NCBI GenBank assembly: GCA_039630055.1
Contig: JBCNVN010000001.1
Coordinates: 96,001 to 160,000, forward strand
Length of the DNA: 64,000 nt
Reading direction: 5' to 3'
Source of the DNA: Candidatus Caldarchaeales archaeon
Lineage (GTDB): Archaea; Thermoproteota; Nitrososphaeria_A; Caldarchaeales; Wolframiiraptoraceae
The first letter of the stretch is position 1; each line of letters begins with the position of its first letter. Below the pieces are notes generated by a model that saw only the letters and a program-made list of their open reading frames with translations, did not search any database and was not told where the DNA came from. Positions 7,390-30,635 of the stretch are shown piece by piece. The position numbers were made by a program, and so were the translations under genes.

Positions 7390-8823
7390 ATGGATCGGGA
7401 AGGCTATAGGGTTGAGAGAGATTTATTTGGAGAGGTCCTGATACCTGTAGAAGCATACTATGATACTAGCACTGTCAGAGCAATAGAGAATTTTCCAATA
7501 TCTGGATTGAGATTTCCTAGAGCTTTCATAAGAGCTTTAGGATTGATAAAGTATTCCGCTGCTAAGGTCAATCTAAAGCTAGGACTATTGGATAGAGATA
7601 GAGCTGAAGCAATAATGAGAGCAGCTCTCGAGGTTGTGGATGGAAGATACGATGATCAGTTTGTCGTTGACATATTCCAAACAGGTTCAGGTACATCGAC
7701 AAATATGAATGCAAACGAGGTTATAGCTAATCGAGCTGCAGAGTTGTTGGGTGGAAAAAAGGGAGATAAGAAGCTAATACATCCAAATGACCATGTAAAT
7801 ATGTGTCAATCGACAAACGATGTGTTTCCCACCGCTATCCACATCTCGGTAGCTGAAAGTATTATCAAGATGCTGCTACCCAGCTTGAAGATTTTGGAAG
7901 AATCTTTAAGGATGAAGGCTTCGGAGTTCGAATCGATTGTAAAATGTGGTAGAACCCATCTACAGGATGCTGTCCCGATAACGCTTGGACAAGAGTTCAG
8001 TGGTTACGCATCTATGATTAGACATGGGATCCAGAGGCTGGAGAGGAATATGGAAGAGATATTAGAGCTACCTATAGGTGGAACAGCGGTTGGAACAGGC
8101 TTAAATGCTCATCCAGATTTTGGAAGAATGGTTGTAGAAGAGATTAGCAATATCACCAACATTATGTTCAAGGTCTCTGAAAATAGATTTGAACAACTCC
8201 AGCTTAGAGATTCTTGTGTTTCAATAAGTGGATGCTTGAGAACAATAGCTGGAAGCATATTGAAGATTATTAGAGATTTGAGACTTCTCAGCTCTGGACC
8301 GAATACCGGGCTTGGAGAGATAGAAGTACCGGCCACACAGCCAGGCTCATCTATAATGCCTGGAAAAGTTAACCCTGTAATACTTGAGAGTTCTATGCTT
8401 GTATGTGTAAAGATCTTTGGAAGTGATCTGACGATCGCACTCTCGAACCAGCTTGGAGAGCTTGAACTCAATATGGGTATGCCTCTAATCGCATATGAAT
8501 TGCTCGAATCGATCCGACTACTATCTAACATGTCTAAGAATTTAGCTGTCAAGTGTATCAATGGATTGAGGGCAAACGTTGAGAGATGCCGTTACTATGC
8601 AGAGGTTAGCCCAGCTCTAGTAACAGCATTGACTCCTATCATCGGATATGATAGAGGAGCATTGATAGCTAAAAAAATCGTAGATGAGAAGAAGACTATA
8701 ACACAAGCATTGATAGAGGAAGGATATTCAGTCGATGATTTGAAGGATGTAATAGATCCGTTAAGGTTGACTAAGGGTGGGATAATCTCAAAGACCTCTA
8801 TCAAGAGAGGGGAAAGCCTTTAA
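7390..8823 (+). CDS. fumC: Class II fumarate hydratase (fumarase/aspartase superfamily)
   Basis: QTGSGTSTNMN, HPNDHVN, GRTHLQDA and the GSSIMPGKVNP signature. Aspartase cannot be fully excluded. Confidence 0.8.
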   Translation: MDREGYRVERDLFGEVLIPVEAYYDTSTVRAIENFPISGLRFPRAFIRALGLIKYSAAKVNLKLGLLDRDRAEAIMRAALEVVDGRYDDQFVVDIFQTGSGTSTNMNANEVIANRAAELLGGKKGDKKLIHPNDHVNMCQSTNDVFPTAIHISVAESIIKMLLPSLKILEESLRMKASEFESIVKCGRTHLQDAVPITLGQEFSGYASMIRHGIQRLERNMEEILELPIGGTAVGTGLNAHPDFGRMVVEEISNITNIMFKVSENRFEQLQLRDSCVSISGCLRTIAGSILKIIRDLRLLSSGPNTGLGEIEVPATQPGSSIMPGKVNPVILESSMLVCVKIFGSDLTIALSNQLGELELNMGMPLIAYELLESIRLLSNMSKNLAVKCINGLRANVERCRYYAEVSPALVTALTPIIGYDRGALIAKKIVDEKKTITQALIEEGYSVDDLKDVIDPLRLTKGGIISKTSIKRGESL

Positions 8824-24228: not shown

Positions 24229-25479
24229 GTGAAGGTTGCAATCGTTCATAGAGTTAACCCGGGAGAAAATGATAATCTAGAAGAACTCAGCGAGCTTTGT
24301 CATACTGCTAACTATGAAGTAGTGTATAGGGTACGGCAAGAGAGACCTCCACATCCAGAATATAATATTGGTCCAGGGAAGGTGGAAGAGCTTAAAAAGG
24401 CTGTTCAAGAGCTGGATATAGAGAAGGTAATATTTGAGAACGAGTTGAAGCCTGTTCAAGAATATAATCTTGCTAAGAAGCTAGGCGTACAGGTAATTAG
24501 TAGAACTCAGCTCATCTTAGAGATATTTACTCTACATGCTAACAGTATCGAGGCTAAACTCCAGATAAAACTAGCAGAATTAAAGTATGAGCTATCTAGA
24601 GCTAAGGAGAAAGTTAGACTGGCGAAGAAGGGAGAGCAGCCTGGATTTCACGGTCTAGGAGCCTACGAAGCAGACGTGTATTATGATGAGATCCATAAGA
24701 GGATAGTTTCAATTAATAGAAAGCTTGAATCAATTAAAAAACATATGGATCTGATAAGGTTTGAGAGGAAGAAGCTAGGTATACCTCTAGTCTCACTATC
24801 TGGATATACCAATGCTGGCAAATCTTCTCTATTCAACCTCTTAGCATCAGAAGATGTTGAAGTAAATTCCCAGCTTTTCACGACTTTAACGCCGACCACG
24901 AGGATCGTGAGATTGGGAGGCAAACCGGTATTCTTATCAGATACTGTAGGATTCATCAGCAATCTTCCAACGCTACTGATAGAGGCATTCTATGCAACTC
25001 TTCGAGAGATTGCTTTATCAGACTTAATATTATTGATGGTCGATATATCTGAACCTCTACCTATAGTAGAGAAGAAGCTTGGAACATCTATTGATGCGTT
25101 AAACAGTATCGGTGCCAATGGTGTCCCAGTCTTAGTTGTCTTTAACAAGATAGACTTGGTAGATGAATCTGAATTAAATAAAAAGATTGAGAGGTTGGGT
25201 CTACCATATCAACATGTAGTGATATCTGCAAAGAATGGCATTAATATCGATAAGCTGGAGAAGACGGCATCAGAGATGTTGAGAGGCTTTATCAAGGTTA
25301 AAGCTACAATCCCCCATGATAGAAGATATATGAAGATAGTTAAAGAATTGTATAGAAAGTCAAAGGTAATGAGTATCGAATACGATGATAGCCATGTGAA
25401 GATAGAGGTGGAGACTACTGTGGATTTAGCGGAAAAGTTGAAGAGATTATCTATCGAAGGAGGATTTAGAGTTGAATGA
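24229..25479 (+). CDS. hflX: GTPase HflX
   Basis: IG.GK..E, LILEIF, EAKLQ..LA.L.Y, GYTNAGKSSLFN, LFTTL.P, DTVGFI, NKID. Confidence 0.95.
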   Translation: MKVAIVHRVNPGENDNLEELSELCHTANYEVVYRVRQERPPHPEYNIGPGKVEELKKAVQELDIEKVIFENELKPVQEYNLAKKLGVQVISRTQLILEIFTLHANSIEAKLQIKLAELKYELSRAKEKVRLAKKGEQPGFHGLGAYEADVYYDEIHKRIVSINRKLESIKKHMDLIRFERKKLGIPLVSLSGYTNAGKSSLFNLLASEDVEVNSQLFTTLTPTTRIVRLGGKPVFLSDTVGFISNLPTLLIEAFYATLREIALSDLILLMVDISEPLPIVEKKLGTSIDALNSIGANGVPVLVVFNKIDLVDESELNKKIERLGLPYQHVVISAKNGINIDKLEKTASEMLRGFIKVKATIPHDRRYMKIVKELYRKSKVMSIEYDDSHVKIEVETTVDLAEKLKRLSIEGGFRVE

Positions 25480-25963
25480 TCAAGATCTTCTAGAAGCTGT
25501 TAGACTTATAGCCGATTACCAGTTCGGCTTTAGAGTAGGATCAAGACTCTTTCCAAATGAGTCTAAAATCCAAGTATCTAAGAAGACTGGTAGACCTAGA
25601 TACATCTTACTTGGAGATAAACTATTAGCAACTGTAAGGAGTAGTGATGGAATGTTGGCTTTAACATTATATGGTGGTGAGAGACTTTCCCATATAATCG
25701 AATGGCCAAGACGTAGGATCATAGTTAAAGACAGTCATCTAGATAAAGTTTTAGAAATGAAGGTTGTAAAGGCAGACTGGGTATCTTATGTAGATGAGAA
25801 CCTGGCTCCAAATGAAGAAGTATTGGTCTACAACTCTTCTAGAAGATTGATAGGTGTTGGGAGAGTAACTACATCTGGTAAAACCATCCTCACTGTTAGC
25901 GGTGGGACGGTCGTAAAGATAAGAGAAGTTGATGAGAAAATAAGACCTGATCCTGTACCCTGA
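25472..25963 (+). CDS. PUA-domain protein (aTGT C-terminal-like)
   Basis: IADYQFG, SKKTGRPR, LATVR..DG.L.LT..G, EEVLV....LIGVG. Confidence 0.8.
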   Translation: MNDQDLLEAVRLIADYQFGFRVGSRLFPNESKIQVSKKTGRPRYILLGDKLLATVRSSDGMLALTLYGGERLSHIIEWPRRRIIVKDSHLDKVLEMKVVKADWVSYVDENLAPNEEVLVYNSSRRLIGVGRVTTSGKTILTVSGGTVVKIREVDEKIRPDPVP

Positions 25964-26086: not shown

Positions 26087-26467
26087 ATGAAAAAGCTCTC
26101 CCCTCGGCAATTGAGACGGATGCAGGCCCGCATGCTTGGAAACCTTGGATTAGATCTAAAAGAGTTGGGAATAGCTGAAGAAGTGGTTATCAGACTCCAA
26201 GACAAGGAGTTGAAGATTAAGAATCCAACAGTCATGTCCATGAAGATTGAGAATGAGACAGTGTACCAGATCCTAGGAGGAGAGGTTGAAGAAGTCTCAC
26301 CGACTATTGGTAGAGAGGTTGAAGAGGCTTACACTCCATCTGAGGAGGATTTGATGCTCGTGGCAGCCCAGGCTGGAGTAAGTGAGGAGGAAGCTAGGGA
26401 AGCCTTAGTAGAGACTCGTGGAGATCTAGCCAAAGCGATACTATTATTAAAGTCTAGGAAAACCTAG
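26087..26467 (+). CDS. nac: Nascent polypeptide-associated complex protein (aNAC)
   Basis: PRQLRRM...LG, EEVVI, NP.V..M.....YQI.G, UBA-like EED..LVA.QAGVS.EEA..AL....GDLA.AIL.L. Confidence 0.93.
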   Translation: MKKLSPRQLRRMQARMLGNLGLDLKELGIAEEVVIRLQDKELKIKNPTVMSMKIENETVYQILGGEVEEVSPTIGREVEEAYTPSEEDLMLVAAQAGVSEEEAREALVETRGDLAKAILLLKSRKT

Positions 26468-26473
26468 ACGGGC

Positions 26474-28273
26474 TCAATCTTCAAATCTTATAATGAATGG
26501 GTTTCCAGTCTCTGAAAGATATCTAAAAAGTACTATAGCTTCGTCAAGGATCTTTCTCTTTCTAAGATTTTTAACAATAGAGATATATCCTCCATCGATC
26601 TGAGAAGCTATCTCAGATTCTAGACTCGCTCTCTCTTCAATATTCTTAAATTTTTCCATAGGTGGATATACTAGGAAACTATAATCACTGATATCTTTAG
26701 GCTCCTTTAATCCTAGTCTACGATACGTTGATTTAAGCATTCTTCTAGCTGAGGATCTAGCAGTTCGAGAAGATAGGGATATTTTCCCAATTAGACTTGA
26801 ATCTTTCTTCAGTGAGTCTTTAAATATTCTTAAAACCTCATTAATAAAATTGTATGATTCTTTTGAAGCTTGTGGCCCAGCTTCATAGACGGTTCTCGCA
26901 GCATCGAGGACTCCATATAAAGATGAAGTATAGGCGATCTCTCCAAGATATCTTCTACCATATATCTGTTTAAAGAACTTCGTTCTTCTACTTAATGCAG
27001 TGAGACCGTGCATGGTTAACTCTCTAACTCTCCTCATGATGTATTCAATGTCTTTACCTGATACTAGAGCAAGAGATAGTACATTTATAGTAAAGATTGC
27101 ATGAATATCTGAAGGGTTTTCTCTAGGTGGAAGCTTGAAGCCAGAGTATAGTATATCAGGTGAATTAGCGACGGCATATTCGTGGTTAAAATTCTTAAAG
27201 ACTTCGCTGAGCTTCTGAAGGTCTTGATGCTTTAGATTATCTAAGACTACGGTAAACTTTATCTTATCTTCTGATCCATCGATCCTCTTAACAAAATCGA
27301 TCATCTTTTCATAATTTTCCAGTAGATCTTCAATGCTTATAGTTATACTGAAGTATCTCCTCCTTAGTAAACCAGCATGGAACACATGCTTAATCATCTT
27401 AAAAGTATTTTCAAATTCTTCTTTTCCACCAACTCTAATATTTAATTCATGTTTAATATTAATAATATAGCTAGATATATCTGAGATGATCTCTAGAGAT
27501 TCTTCTACATCGCTTGGAGCATGATAGCTTCTAGCTAAGATACAGGTTAGCCAACCCTCTAAAGGATATAGGTCTATCTCTCCTGAAAGATGCATCTCTG
27601 CAATATTTCTTGGGAGTAAGCTTTGTAGACAGTATTCTTTCATAATCGATTCTGAAGATTTTTCAATGAACTCTCTTAGATCTCCTGTATTCGAGATATT
27701 TTTTAAAGTTTTAGAAACATCATATATCGGCATCCCAATCCTTGTTAATCTATGTCTATACTTTTCCAAACCCATATCTAAAAGTATGTTGTTGACAAGC
27801 TCTCTTATGAGAGAAGATGTTAGATACTCTATTTTCAGATCTTTTAACTTCTCTTCAGCTATTGAAGCTATCTCCGAGGCCAATTTTAAACTAATGTTTG
27901 CTTCTCTCACTAGTGATCGAGCTATCTTAGACTTGTCAAACGGTTCTACGAGATTATCACTTCTCCTTACAATCATTAAATCTCTAGACCCTAAAGCTTT
28001 CCTAAGCTCTTCTAGAATTTCTAGCATCGTCAGACCAATCCTTGACAATTTATATTTACCAGAATCTTTATCAACTTCAATTAAACTCACATTTAGCATC
28101 TTCTTTAAATGATATGAAAATTTTCCAGCATCTTTATTCTTCTCTAATCCAAGCGAAGCCATCAACTCTGAGTAACCCATCTCTCTCTTAGATAGAAGCC
28201 TTAAGATCTCTGATCTTGTAGGAGATGCGATAGCGTCCAAGATATTATTGACATCGTTTGCAGTCTTATCCAT
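26474..28273 (-). CDS. Fusion: ArsR-like winged helix + ATP-cone + degenerate class III ribonucleotide reductase (NrdD) body
   Basis: HTH: ASPTRSEILRLL...GKFSYHLKKM. ATP-cone: VRRSD...EPFDKSKI..SL.RE...IRELVN..L. NrdD-like: TRIGMPIYDV, LLPRNIAEMHLSGEI, TINV, ERASLE.EI...DGGYI. No C-terminal Zn site or glycyl-radical motif. Confidence 0.75.
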   Translation of the reverse strand: MDKTANDVNNILDAIASPTRSEILRLLSKREMGYSELMASLGLEKNKDAGKFSYHLKKMLNVSLIEVDKDSGKYKLSRIGLTMLEILEELRKALGSRDLMIVRRSDNLVEPFDKSKIARSLVREANISLKLASEIASIAEEKLKDLKIEYLTSSLIRELVNNILLDMGLEKYRHRLTRIGMPIYDVSKTLKNISNTGDLREFIEKSSESIMKEYCLQSLLPRNIAEMHLSGEIDLYPLEGWLTCILARSYHAPSDVEESLEIISDISSYIINIKHELNIRVGGKEEFENTFKMIKHVFHAGLLRRRYFSITISIEDLLENYEKMIDFVKRIDGSEDKIKFTVVLDNLKHQDLQKLSEVFKNFNHEYAVANSPDILYSGFKLPPRENPSDIHAIFTINVLSLALVSGKDIEYIMRRVRELTMHGLTALSRRTKFFKQIYGRRYLGEIAYTSSLYGVLDAARTVYEAGPQASKESYNFINEVLRIFKDSLKKDSSLIGKISLSSRTARSSARRMLKSTYRRLGLKEPKDISDYSFLVYPPMEKFKNIEERASLESEIASQIDGGYISIVKNLRKRKILDEAIVLFRYLSETGNPFIIRFED

Positions 28274-28466
28274 ATTTCTCCAAGAATAGAATTAGAGTAT
28301 TCGCTCTAAAAAATTTGTACTCATTGTTGTAAAAGATATTATTTCGAGAATCTCAAGATAATTCAAGAATATTCTACCTATGGAAAATTACTAAAGACTA
28401 CAGGATAGATTGTAAGACTATGATACCTTATATATTCTCTATTCTTTATTTACTGAGAGGTCCTAT

Positions 28467-29348
28467 ATGGAAGAATTTTATAGTGGAATTCGAGAGATTG
28501 TAAACGATAAAGTTCATGGTTCAACCCAGATTGCTATAAACTTAATGAGGTTTCTATCAAGAAATTTAGAGAATGTTGATCTATACAAACTTAGAGAGAT
28601 ATTTGACGAAGTATTGAGTATTGCTGAAACTAGGACTTCCATAATCCTACCGATAAACATGCTACATATACTGAGAGAAGCTGTCGAATCATCTATAAGT
28701 AGAGATGTGAGATCAAATGTGAAGAGATTGATAGACTCTCTCCTTTCATATTATAGTCAAGATCTAGAATGGTCGGCAGAGAATGGGGCGAAGGCTTTAG
28801 AGGGTTACAGAAGAATCTTTACTTTAAGTTATAGCTCACAGGTATTAAAGGTTCTGAGAAAGATTAAAGATATAGAAGTATCTATTGTGGCTGGATGGCC
28901 TCTCTTAGATGGGTTAAGGGCTTCAAGAGAATTGAGATCAGTCGGTGTTAAAACTTTCCTCTATCCAGACTCCTCCATATATGAGGCCATAAATTCATCA
29001 GATGCCATCTTCCTAGGATGTGACGCTATTCTCATAGATGGTTCAATAATAAATAGATCAGGCTCTAGAATAGCCACATTGATTTCTAACTACGAGTCTA
29101 TACCCTCGTATGTGATCGGTGAGAGTCTAAAGTTAGATATTAGGTCTATATGGAAGCCTGAGGTATGGAAATATGTTTTTGAAGATGTAGAGACGGAGTT
29201 TCAAGTATTCGAAAAGGTTGAGTTTGAACTTATCTCGAAACACATCTCAGAGCTGGGCATAGATACTCCAAGAAATTTTGTAAATAAAGCCTTGAGAAAG
29301 ATGGAAGAATATACTAGAAAACTTTTAGAGAGTGTTCTCAGCAACTAG
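28467..29348 (+). CDS. eIF-2B alpha/beta/delta-like protein (R15P isomerase-like fold)
   Basis: D..HGS, TLSYSS.V, LGCDAIL.DG..INRSGS, FE.V...LI..HISELG. Confidence 0.75.
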   Translation: MEEFYSGIREIVNDKVHGSTQIAINLMRFLSRNLENVDLYKLREIFDEVLSIAETRTSIILPINMLHILREAVESSISRDVRSNVKRLIDSLLSYYSQDLEWSAENGAKALEGYRRIFTLSYSSQVLKVLRKIKDIEVSIVAGWPLLDGLRASRELRSVGVKTFLYPDSSIYEAINSSDAIFLGCDAILIDGSIINRSGSRIATLISNYESIPSYVIGESLKLDIRSIWKPEVWKYVFEDVETEFQVFEKVEFELISKHISELGIDTPRNFVNKALRKMEEYTRKLLESVLSN

Positions 29349-29388: not shown

Positions 29389-29994
29389 TCAATCTTGTAT
29401 TAAACTATCCCAGAAATCCAACTCATACCGCTGGATAGTCTTCGCAATAAACCTATATCTATCCCAATCCAGATACCTTTCAGCGATCTTCTCAGCCTTC
29501 TCATCTAACACGTTATATGGACCTGAAAACAATTCAAAGATCTTTGTAGATCTTATCGATATCCTCTTGACGTATTCTCCGAGATTCTTGACGTTCTCGC
29601 CCCAAACGGGAAGGTTTACGATTAAAGCTATGGCCACATCCCCTGGAGAACCATTCAATGCTAGCCATGAAAGAAAGTGTGTGTAGGATACTGCTTTGGG
29701 AGATACCTTACTATAGTCTAATTTGATATTGAGCTCATCTGAGAGCATGTATAGTGCTCTTAGAGCTTCGTAATCACCATCAACTAAGAGTTTGAAGAAC
29801 TCGAGCTCATCCATCCTACTAGCCTTAGAGAGTATATGTGAGAGAGCTTTCAGATCGTGTGGAATTATATATAGCTGATTCTCTACAAATCTTCTAAGTA
29901 TCTCATTGCTTGGTTCACGAATAGAAGGATGTTGAAGTATCTTCTTGTTCAGTTCTTCCAACTCTTCTCTCAGCTTATTTATTATGTAACCCAT
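29389..29994 (-). CDS. TenA-family protein (non-Cys type)
   Basis: FVENQLYII.HD, SYTHFLSWLA, NLPVWG, QRYELDFWD. Confidence 0.8.
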   Translation of the reverse strand: MGYIINKLREELEELNKKILQHPSIREPSNEILRRFVENQLYIIPHDLKALSHILSKASRMDELEFFKLLVDGDYEALRALYMLSDELNIKLDYSKVSPKAVSYTHFLSWLALNGSPGDVAIALIVNLPVWGENVKNLGEYVKRISIRSTKIFELFSGPYNVLDEKAEKIAERYLDWDRYRFIAKTIQRYELDFWDSLIQD

Positions 29995-30635
29995 TCCTCT
30001 TCACCATATGCTGCGCTCCAAAATAGGTATTCATATTTTGTAGAGAGCTCGAAATATGGCCACATCTCTTCTATGGATAAGCTGGAAGAGTCGACCTCGC
30101 TCTTAAATACCTCGACTATCTCCCTATATTCTTTCGTTAGATAGGCTGTTGCCCACTTCTTATAGAGGGCTGATGGATTTGATTCTAGCTTGTCTCTATG
30201 CTTTTCCGCGATCTCTTGATATGTCCAATAGCATGGTAGTAGTGATGCGATAGTAGTCCAATAGTCTTTTGAGTAGCTTGTAGAGATAAGATAATTCATG
30301 TAGGCGATATTTGTAGGGTTTGGAACCGTGTTTACCGCATCTCTTATTGAGAGCCCCATCTCAGAGAGGAGTTTTTCATAATTCGCCATCTCTCCCTCTA
30401 CAGTCATATATGCTAACTTTAACGCTATCTTGGAACGGTTGATATCAGGCGCTTTAGCTGAAACTATGCTTAAAACCTTAACGATACTTGTAAGATAGTT
30501 GTAGTCTTGGAGGATATAGTACTTGAACTTAGAGTATGGTAAAACCCCAGAGTAGAGCTCTACAACGAATGGATGTTCAATTATCTTCTCCCATATCTTG
30601 GAAGCCCGTTCCCTCAGTATAGATGATCTACCCAT
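29982..30635 (-). CDS. tenA: Thiaminase II / TenA (Cys type)
   Basis: HPFV..L..G.L....F..Y..QDY.YL, catalytic LLPCYWTY, Y..W...Y, YEYLFW. Confidence 0.88.
   Translation of the reverse strand: MGRSSILRERASKIWEKIIEHPFVVELYSGVLPYSKFKYYILQDYNYLTSIVKVLSIVSAKAPDINRSKIALKLAYMTVEGEMANYEKLLSEMGLSIRDAVNTVPNPTNIAYMNYLISTSYSKDYWTTIASLLPCYWTYQEIAEKHRDKLESNPSALYKKWATAYLTKEYREIVEVFKSEVDSSSLSIEEMWPYFELSTKYEYLFWSAAYGEEEWVT

Follow-up and report, generated by a model that had tools for sequence, protein, structure and literature searches.

What does a gene that joins a DNA-binding domain to the body of an anaerobic ribonucleotide reductase (RNR) do in an archaeon in which the only reductase found is of another class? 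Such a gene, of 599 codons, lies on the reverse strand of the 64,000-nucleotide stretch analysed here (referred to below as the window), i.e. positions 96,001 to 160,000 of contig JBCNVN010000001.1 from the genome (GCA_039630055.1) of a Candidatus Caldarchaeales archaeon of the Wolframiiraptoraceae, an inhabitant of hot springs. Its product (P0001) is a pseudoenzyme with a DNA-binding head, in which a winged helix-turn-helix (wHTH) domain and an ATP-cone precede a barrel of the class III reductase NrdD that has lost its radical chemistry. With a probability of roughly 55%, we regard it as a dead class III reductase turned into a DNA-binding, nucleotide-sensing regulator. To our knowledge, the control of RNR gene transcription is an open question in most archaea. 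In this gene, which is nearly universal in its class, a DNA-binding domain is fused to two reductase modules that could sense nucleotides, and this union makes the question directly testable.

Loss of radical chemistry in a reductase barrel with a DNA-binding head

A preliminary description of the gene, made from the letters of the window, had proposed an intact frame of 599 residues encoding an ArsR-like wHTH, an ATP-cone, and a barrel collinear with NrdD that ends before the zinc-binding CxxC pairs and the RVxGY glycyl-radical loop, with the catalytic residues missing. The frame is uninterrupted from its ATG to the stop codon, all six motif strings quoted in that description are present in the translation, and the architecture of wHTH, ATP-cone, and dead NrdD barrel is fully supported by Pfam, the structural model, structural alignment with VIA, and sequence alignment.

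By family models, the wHTH belongs to the ArsR/SmtB type. Among the Pfam models, HTH_5 (PF01022) matches residues 17–66 with 27.9 bits (cut-off, 22), HTH_20 (PF12840) matches residues 15–67 with 27.8 bits (cut-off, 27), and DUF7347 (PF24038) matches the full domain at residues 11–84; in addition, the NCBIfam model NF033788 gave 31.8 bits, which is under its cut-off of 55, and the ArsR structure 6j05 in the PDB was matched with an E-value of 0.0096. The recognition helix carries the family signature D-A-G-K-F-S-Y-H-L, and G50, F52, Y54, H55, and L56 are invariant or nearly so among 150 family sequences. The ATP-cone that follows (PF03477, residues 100–172; E = 7.5e-9; 36.5 bits; cut-off, 25.8) is divergent, but inspection and a weak hhalign match indicate that E-x-F, K-I, and Y-R are retained where canonical cones have them, and in the VIA alignment the model aligns from residue 97/98 onwards with the cone-bearing NrdDs 9d3x and 8p2c. 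The matches obtained with NCBIfam were of the wHTH and cone types only. Between cone and barrel lies the most conserved linker segment, in which R173, R178, G180, P182, and D185 are invariant or nearly so; the same segment is present in a canonical NrdD of the class (L085) and is common to one subclass of working-type NrdDs.

The Pfam model NRDD (PF13597) matches residues 394–589 of the C-terminal body with 20.9 bits, under its cut-off of 26.2, and no NrdD or NrdR model of NCBIfam matches the protein at E ≤ 1; two control NrdDs (L082 and L085) gave 574 and 503 bits, respectively, on TIGR02487. A profile built from 20 family members matched solved NrdDs with E-values of 3.2e-21 (9d3x) and 1.3e-16 (4coi), and a profile of 41 long members did so with 6e-42 (8p23), 2e-38 (9d3x), 4.5e-36 (4coi), and 5.6e-29 (1h78 of phage T4). 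The AlphaFold2 model, derived from 150 homologs (mean predicted local distance difference test score [pLDDT], 92.7; predicted template modelling score, 0.79), contains the ten-stranded alpha/beta barrel of the RNR/PFL type. NrdD structures were the top Foldseek matches of this model (E = 3e-15 to 1e-9), ranking before class I enzymes, and they also came first in VIA-align: 8p27_A reached Z 26.0 (root-mean-square deviation, 3.7; 391 residues aligned; model residues 192–599), T4 1h7b reached Z 24.2, and Thermotoga maritima 4con reached Z 24.0, with class I and II reductases behind them (Z 19–23.6). These matches place the descent of the C-terminal body from a class III reductase far beyond chance.

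To locate the catalytic positions, five working-type NrdDs from genomes of the same class were aligned with the window protein and other family members. The finger loop that reads S-M-C-C-R-L (or M-G-C-R-S) in canonical enzymes corresponds to S-G-F-K-L, so that Phe379 stands where those enzymes have the thiyl-radical cysteine; Ala248 stands where their strand A carries the other active-site cysteine (Y-C-V-G-W-D-L). The protein stops at the strand preceding the Zn ribbon and so lacks both this ribbon and the glycyl-radical motif R-V/I-V-G-Y, and neither a CxxC pair nor a glycyl-radical motif was found anywhere in it. In a 73-row alignment, both cysteines are present in all seven canonical NrdDs; among the 66 family rows, the strand-A cysteine is present in none and a cysteine in the thiyl column in two (P0063 and P0072). 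The eight commonest residues of the thiyl column among 150 family sequences are L (30), F (23), Y (23), I (22), V (11), S (11), E (7), and T (5), and the preceding glycine is kept in 125 of them. The Asn of the N-L-P-R motif (Asn397) occurs in 148 of the 150 and is also invariant in the canonical NrdDs aligned. Independent HMMER alignments of the long-form profile agree with this picture: the family's G-l-R falls on G-C-R in 9d3x, and its r-l-s-a-k on R-I-T-G-Y in 8p23. Even among the 41 longest members, the radical-glycine column holds Gly in only 12. These data show that the protein has lost its two active-site cysteines as well as the Zn ribbon and the glycyl-radical domain, and the missing end and missing catalytic residues of the preliminary description are both borne out by the alignment and its column counts.

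Compared with NrdDs of known structure (8p23/8p27 of P. copri, 9d3x of S. thermophilus, 4coi/4u3e of T. maritima, and 1h78 of phage T4), the protein shares the barrel fold (Z 22–26) and the succession of ATP-cone, linker, and barrel, is predicted to dimerise through the same helices, and retains the N-L-P-R-type Asn, G-x-x-E, R, Y, and G-G motifs. Unlike those enzymes, it has no thiyl cysteine, bottom cysteine, Zn ribbon, glycyl-radical domain, or activase, carries an extra N-terminal wHTH, and scores under the Pfam and NCBIfam cut-offs.

Family, likely donor and selection

A phmmer search against 1.84 billion representative sequences returned 1011 matches at E ≤ 1e-3, 466 at E ≤ 1e-10, and 121 at E ≤ 1e-30, and at least 556 genome stretches (one genome per species) encode a relative, the scan for them having used the signature pattern D/E-A/S-G-K/R-F-x-Y-H-L. 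The best conserved part of the family is the N-terminal 240 residues, and the closest named records among the matches listed belong to Candidatus Geocrenenecus, Wolframiiraptor, and Terraquivivens. In a word-index search, members fell into short forms of ~580–605 aa (Nitrososphaeria and ‘Aigarchaeota’), middle forms of ~660–730 aa with a terminal CxxC...CxxC ribbon (Nitrososphaera and Nitrosotalea), and long forms of ~730–800 aa with ribbon and tail (Bathyarchaeia). The window protein shares with the longer members the wHTH signature, cone, linker, and dead finger loop, and differs from them in having neither the ribbon nor the tail that the longest ones add. Many members are labelled ‘anaerobic ribonucleoside-triphosphate reductase’ by their sources, and through these labels aerobic ammonia oxidisers and other archaea would be wrongly credited with an anaerobic route to deoxyribonucleoside triphosphates (dNTPs).

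A maximum-likelihood tree of the barrel columns (73 rows, 467 columns, LG+G4) was evaluated by the Shimodaira–Hasegawa-like approximate likelihood ratio test (SH-aLRT) only; its root was chosen, on six canonical NrdDs, and the few outgroups, the short search, and composition warnings limit it. The 66 family rows, including P0001, formed one clade (SH-aLRT 99), the sister of which (support 100) was L085, a canonical cone-bearing NrdD of 741 aa (genome G041, C26). Within the family, the long forms branch first, the forms with only a Zn ribbon and the short forms are nested, and the window protein lies within a 21-row clade of short forms (support 98). L085 itself has a Zn ribbon, R-I-T-G-Y, a Cys-rich finger loop, and 503 bits on TIGR02487. 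It shares with the family the unusual cone start V-R-T-T-D-G and the linker S-A-P-L-I-R-E-L-V-N ... R-V-G-A-P-V-Y-D, a likeness that fits an origin of the family from that NrdD subclass. The subclass of L085 is thus the likely, candidate donor, and the branching order suggests a stepwise loss in which the tail would have gone first and then the ribbon; the window form, which has no ribbon, is the most reduced one in this large archaeal family.

Such a stepwise dismantling of a radical enzyme, with its scaffold kept, provides a clear case of pseudoenzyme evolution, to which the window adds the ribbon-less form, a near-universal presence maintained by selection in a lineage in which NrdJ is the main reductase found, and the likely donor subclass of NrdD. 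Searches of openly accessible full texts retrieved no account of an NrdD that is fused to an HTH or catalytically dead; look-ups of the terms in four specialist RNR papers (PMC3019208, PMC2795772, PMC9669993, and PMC11226230) gave no mention of HTH, winged, or DNA-binding forms of NrdD.

With P0001 as the query (E ≤ 1e-10), 68 of the 76 genomes in the class gave a match, and an ortholog is present in 41 of the 43 high-quality genomes and in 14 of the 15 genera. All 68 matches are open frames of ~530–720 aa without internal stops. The ratio of nonsynonymous to synonymous substitution rates (dN/dS, Nei–Gojobori) was 0.07–0.17 in 12 of 13 pairs, including unsaturated ones (dS 0.13–0.85), the remaining pair being saturated; per domain, the ratios in five pairs were 0.05–0.15 for the wHTH, 0.03–0.21 for the cone, and 0.06–0.20 for the two barrel halves. 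These values show strong purifying selection on all domains and no neutral decay across the orthologs, in agreement with the earlier remark that the gene does not look like a decaying pseudogene.

Proposed nucleotide sensing, candidate targets and alternative roles

The host assembly, with an estimated completeness of 92%, totals 1.54 Mb on 80 contigs. Neither a canonical NrdD, a Gly_radical domain, NrdB, nor NrdR was found in it, and no NrdG reached the cut-off (best score, 26.8 bits against 126 for TIGR02491 and 53.1 against 131 for TIGR02495); because of the 92% completeness, the absence of NrdD and NrdG is probable, not proven. The statement that no nrdG is adjacent to the gene therefore holds for the neighbourhood and, at these cut-offs, for the whole assembly. 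The window protein also fails the NrdR model TIGR00244, and the only other PF13597 match in the genome spans 27 columns (E = 0.007) inside a 1209-aa frame. A radical domain encoded separately was considered and rejected, no Gly_radical domain and no NrdD having been found. The genome contains two ATP-cones only, that of the window protein and that of a 903-aa reductase on contig 2, an adenosylcobalamin-dependent NrdJ (747 bits on TIGR02504; cut-off, 400), which is the sole reductase found. The check for a separate active RNR that the preliminary description had proposed thus leads to a B12-dependent class II enzyme on another contig. NrdJ is also the main reductase found in the lineage (32 of 35 family genomes). 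A full-length canonical NrdD is present in 9 of the 76 genomes of the class (E = 1e-94 to 1e-205), including the congener G050, in which nrdD is followed by nrdG; these two genes scored 574 bits (TIGR02487) and 165 bits (TIGR02495), respectively. The nrdJ genes of several relatives (L075–L078; genomes G048, G052, G054, G073, G068, and G051) are frames of 1144–1306 aa in which the match is split into two or three pieces, and they probably encode intein-containing reductases.

Two copies of the barrel (residues 176–599) were predicted to form a symmetric homodimer with a score of 0.84, whereas none of three controls scored above 0.00. The mark set for this score is reached by 20 of 30 proteins solved as one-chain pairs and by 1 of 23 single-chain ones, and because NrdD dimers have already been solved, passing it may reflect likeness only. 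The predicted contacts involve helices 199–219 and 256–272 and the linker 176–187 (176–183 and 186–187); at least 96% of the contacts recur between runs, and the pLDDT of the partner is at least 86. The two helices correspond to what we take to be the four-helix bundle holding the allosteric specificity site of RNRs. A barrel dimer of this kind would position two winged helices next to each other, which is the arrangement needed to read a palindromic operator.

We infer that the protein couples (d)NTP pools to transcription, in the following way. A non-catalytic descendant of an ATP-cone-bearing class III reductase would have become a DNA-binding, nucleotide-sensing regulator, the barrel of which dimerises, according to the model, through the reductase four-helix bundle. 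The cone, and perhaps retained effector or substrate pockets of the barrel, may bind ATP/dATP or other (d)NTPs; binding would alter the geometry of the dimer or its oligomeric state, as in NrdR, and by the same analogy this change would alter DNA binding. The most likely targets would be the gene's own promoter and genes for deoxyribonucleotide supply, here the B12-dependent nrdJ. A more specific version, which we put forward only tentatively, is that the protein is a differently built archaeal counterpart of NrdR that has inherited both allosteric sites of a reductase, the cone (for ATP/dATP) and the specificity site at the dimer interface (for the four dNTPs). It could then sense directly how large and how balanced the dNTP pool is and control the gene of the working reductase, which is nrdJ here and nrdD in Bathyarchaeia, perhaps together with replication genes, across Nitrososphaerota and Bathyarchaeia.

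Two known systems serve as guides. NrdR is a bacterial RNR-specific repressor consisting of a Zn ribbon and an ATP-cone, in which ATP favours a dodecamer that does not bind DNA, and dATP together with ATP favours a DNA-binding tetramer (PMC9110341). Like NrdR, the window protein fuses a DNA-binding module to an ATP-cone, and the logic expected would be the same, i.e. adenine nucleotides would set the assembly state and thereby DNA binding at the reductase gene and its own gene. Unlike NrdR, it uses an ArsR-type winged helix, has no Zn ribbon or CxxC pairs, lacks the K-R pair in its cone, and adds a dead reductase barrel of 400 residues as the predicted provider of the dimer; no boxes were identified for it. 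The second system, NrtR, combines a Nudix-like effector domain with a DNA-binding domain (PMC2330246). As in NrtR, a transcription factor would sense its ligand through a domain recruited from an enzyme and be mis-annotated as that enzyme, whereas the two differ in fold, ligand class, and domain of life, and the donor is among the largest and most complex radical enzymes, from which two allosteric sites may have been inherited.

The 193-bp intergenic region that the gene shares with the divergent gene upstream of it contains a candidate promoter, in which a T-rich TATA-like element, TTTTTTAGAG (28304–28313), overlaps a perfect palindrome, TAGAG-N6-CTCTA (28293–28308). These elements lie 20–40 nt before the ATG. 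The string TTTTTAGA, ~35 nt before the start, is invariant in all seven congeners; the palindrome is perfect in only two of the seven, this genome and its closest relative, and is a candidate autoregulatory site. Upstream of nrdJ, a region of 476 bp (contig 2, ~7528–8003; locus L048) contains a 17-bp block, C-W-C-T-A-N6-T-A-G-W-G, which is conserved in seven of seven congeners ~130–150 nt before the ATG. Further conserved blocks follow it in the nrdJ leader; the conserved blocks suggest a long regulated leader or an upstream promoter. A search of the nrdJ upstream region against Rfam gave nothing above noise, and a scan of the same region for sigma-70 promoters and terminators was set aside as not applicable to archaea.

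Two candidate links between these regions were rejected. As a shared operator, TAGAG-N6-CTCTA has 12 copies in the genome and CTCTA-N6-TAGAG has 7, with 7–15 copies at neighbouring spacings, and the other copies lie mostly inside open reading frames (ORFs) or before unrelated genes. The 9-mer TTTTTAGAG, shared by the gene's own promoter and the nrdJ upstream region, occurs at 53 genomic sites, five of which are 15–60 nt before an ORF, with no obvious nucleotide-metabolism gene behind them. Since both the palindromes and the 9-mer recur across the genome, the sites at the promoter and at nrdJ are candidates only. No significant motif common to the two regions was found in the host genome.

The genomic context of the family was surveyed at 79 public loci, which were searched with the host NrdJ, four canonical NrdDs, and one NrdG. 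A reductase gene was found in the available flanks of 11 of the 65 loci from outside the lineage of the window (Bathyarchaeia and related groups), which is an enrichment by eye and not a test, because kin are not independent and the flank lengths differ among loci. At four of these loci (L113, L115, L123, and L140), the family gene is followed immediately, in the same orientation, by a gene for an NrdD that lacks a wHTH and has R-V/I-x-G-Y and cysteine in its finger loop, and at L168 nrdD–nrdG lies ~4 kb away. The full frame of the neighbour could be read at five loci, and it was a wHTH-less NrdD of the working type in all five; L111 and L142 are interrupted by a contig end, and L120 contains a masked stretch. 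Two other loci (L114 and L132) have nrdJ nearby, and L134 has only a second, split family-like copy.

Several observations weigh against a nucleotide-sensing regulator of reductase genes. In the lineage of the window, none of the 14 short-form loci has a reductase gene in its available flanks, and the distance between the gene and nrdJ is 56–66 kb in the three genomes in which both are on one contig. The conserved neighbours are housekeeping genes (HflX, PUA, and NAC), and these also follow the ortholog in two other genera. The 9-mer shared by the gene's promoter and nrdJ is not significant, in that a string of at least nine nucleotides is common to that promoter and 458 of 1708 upstream regions of the genome. 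The gene is absent from all seven genomes of genus g11 (G022–G028), the only genus of the 15 without it, and in the five g11 genomes examined with the family profile only stand-alone wHTH proteins were matched. The cone has V-R-R-S where canonical cones show V-x-K-R, a reading that comes from inspection and a weak hhalign match; a narrow cone profile of 15 sequences retrieved no solved ATP-cone from the PDB at E ≤ 1, and hhalign of the cone against that of the host NrdJ covered 17 columns with a probability of 1%.

The best of the other explanations, which we consider unlikely though still worth weighing, keeps the sensing of nucleotides or energy charge and gives the protein a regulon unrelated to RNR, such as growth, translation, or replication, with the link to RNR being ancestral only. 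The lack of reductase genes at the 14 loci, the lack of a significant motif shared with nrdJ, and the synteny, which on the convergent side comprises HflX, PUA, and NAC and in sister genera places the gene divergent to secE–nusG–rpl11, are in its favour. However, members in Bathyarchaeia lie directly upstream of a working nrdD, and the recognition helix is nearly invariant throughout the family, which argues for a conserved target; housekeeping synteny on the convergent side also says little about regulation.

It is improbable that the protein is still an enzyme, or a protein that binds or hydrolyses nucleotides by non-radical chemistry in the barrel pocket, with the wHTH serving localisation or autoregulation. 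Such a role would account for the near invariance of N397 (148/150), G454, E457, R511, Y531, and G562, for G561, which is invariant in alignments of 20 and 19 rows, and for the purifying selection on the barrel. All residues known to be needed for RNR chemistry have nevertheless been lost, the retained motifs may be structural or ligand-sensing, and no new conserved cluster of Cys, His, or Asp is evident in the lists of invariant columns.

A still smaller probability attaches to the idea that the protein is the regulatory partner of an active reductase, which it would titrate or modulate. The preliminary description had offered a heterodimer with active NrdD as an option, and the RNR dimer interface, which is kept according to the model, together with the coexistence of this gene and canonical NrdD in some relatives (the nine NrdD-bearing genomes of the class), would suit it. 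In the host, such a heterodimer is unlikely: NrdD was not found in the 92% complete assembly, the only reductase is the class II NrdJ, and a homodimer is confidently predicted. Furthermore, most genomes of the class carry the gene without NrdD, and the conserved wHTH would be left unexplained. Finally, a functionless relic in slow decay, to which the loss of all catalytic features and the progressive C-terminal truncation across the family might point, is hardly credible in view of the open frames in all 68 carriers, the low dN/dS overall (0.07–0.17) and in each domain, and the high conservation throughout the family.

Neighbouring genes and promoters of the family

The features of the locus are listed in Table 1.

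Table 1. Coordinates of the gene, its parts, and the adjacent genes, numbered from the first nucleotide of the window
Feature	Position	Strand	Basis or remark
Whole gene (wHTH, ATP-cone, pseudo-NrdD; 599 aa and stop codon)	26474..28273	-	ATG start
ArsR-type wHTH, residues 11–84	28022..28243	-	Pfam PF24038, PF01022, PF12840
Divergent ATP-cone, residues 100–172	27758..27976	-	Pfam PF03477
Linker R-H-x-L-T-R-x-G-M-P-x-Y-D, residues 173–190	27704..27757	-	Most conserved linker segment
NrdD-type alpha/beta barrel without radical chemistry, residues 192–599	26477..27700	-	VIA and alignment with canonical NrdDs
Two predicted dimer-interface helices, residues 199–219 and 256–272	27458..27679	-	Complex prediction; helices from the model
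Phe379 codon, position of the thiyl-radical cysteine in the finger loop	27137..27139	-	Alignments
Asn397 codon, conserved Asn of the NrdD N-L-P-R motif	27083..27085	-	N in 148/150 family sequences
Likely promoter with candidate autoregulatory palindrome	28293..28313	-	Sequence
HflX-type GTPase	24229–25479	+	Convergent to the gene
TGT_C2/PUA protein	25472–25963	+	Convergent to the gene
NAC	26087–26467	+	Convergent; ends 7 nt from the stop codon of the gene
IF-2B family protein, divergent neighbour	28467–29348	+	PF01008, E 1e-22

The divergent neighbour varies among genera, i.e. it is IF-2B-like in the genus of the window, secE–nusG–rpl11 in another, and a carbamoyltransferase gene in a third. 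The IF-2B family also includes sugar-phosphate isomerases of nucleoside salvage. Beyond the IF-2B gene, two tandem overlapping genes of the TENA/THI-4 family, encoding 201 and 217 aa, occupy 29389–30635 on the reverse strand.

In Bathyarchaeia and other groups (L107–L171), the motif TTTAAAC(T) was present in 36 of 69 family promoters and in 37 of 777 control upstream regions, the controls being uncurated ORFs from the same loci and kin not being independent; this motif was not present in the genus of the window. The nrdD genes directly downstream of family genes at those loci are preceded by repeated TATAC motifs. At five bathyarchaeial loci (L120, L123, L134, L140, and L168), a gene for a product of ~280–335 aa that ends in ...ARYFQQVWNGIVVRMALLAL... 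adjoins nrdD or the family gene.

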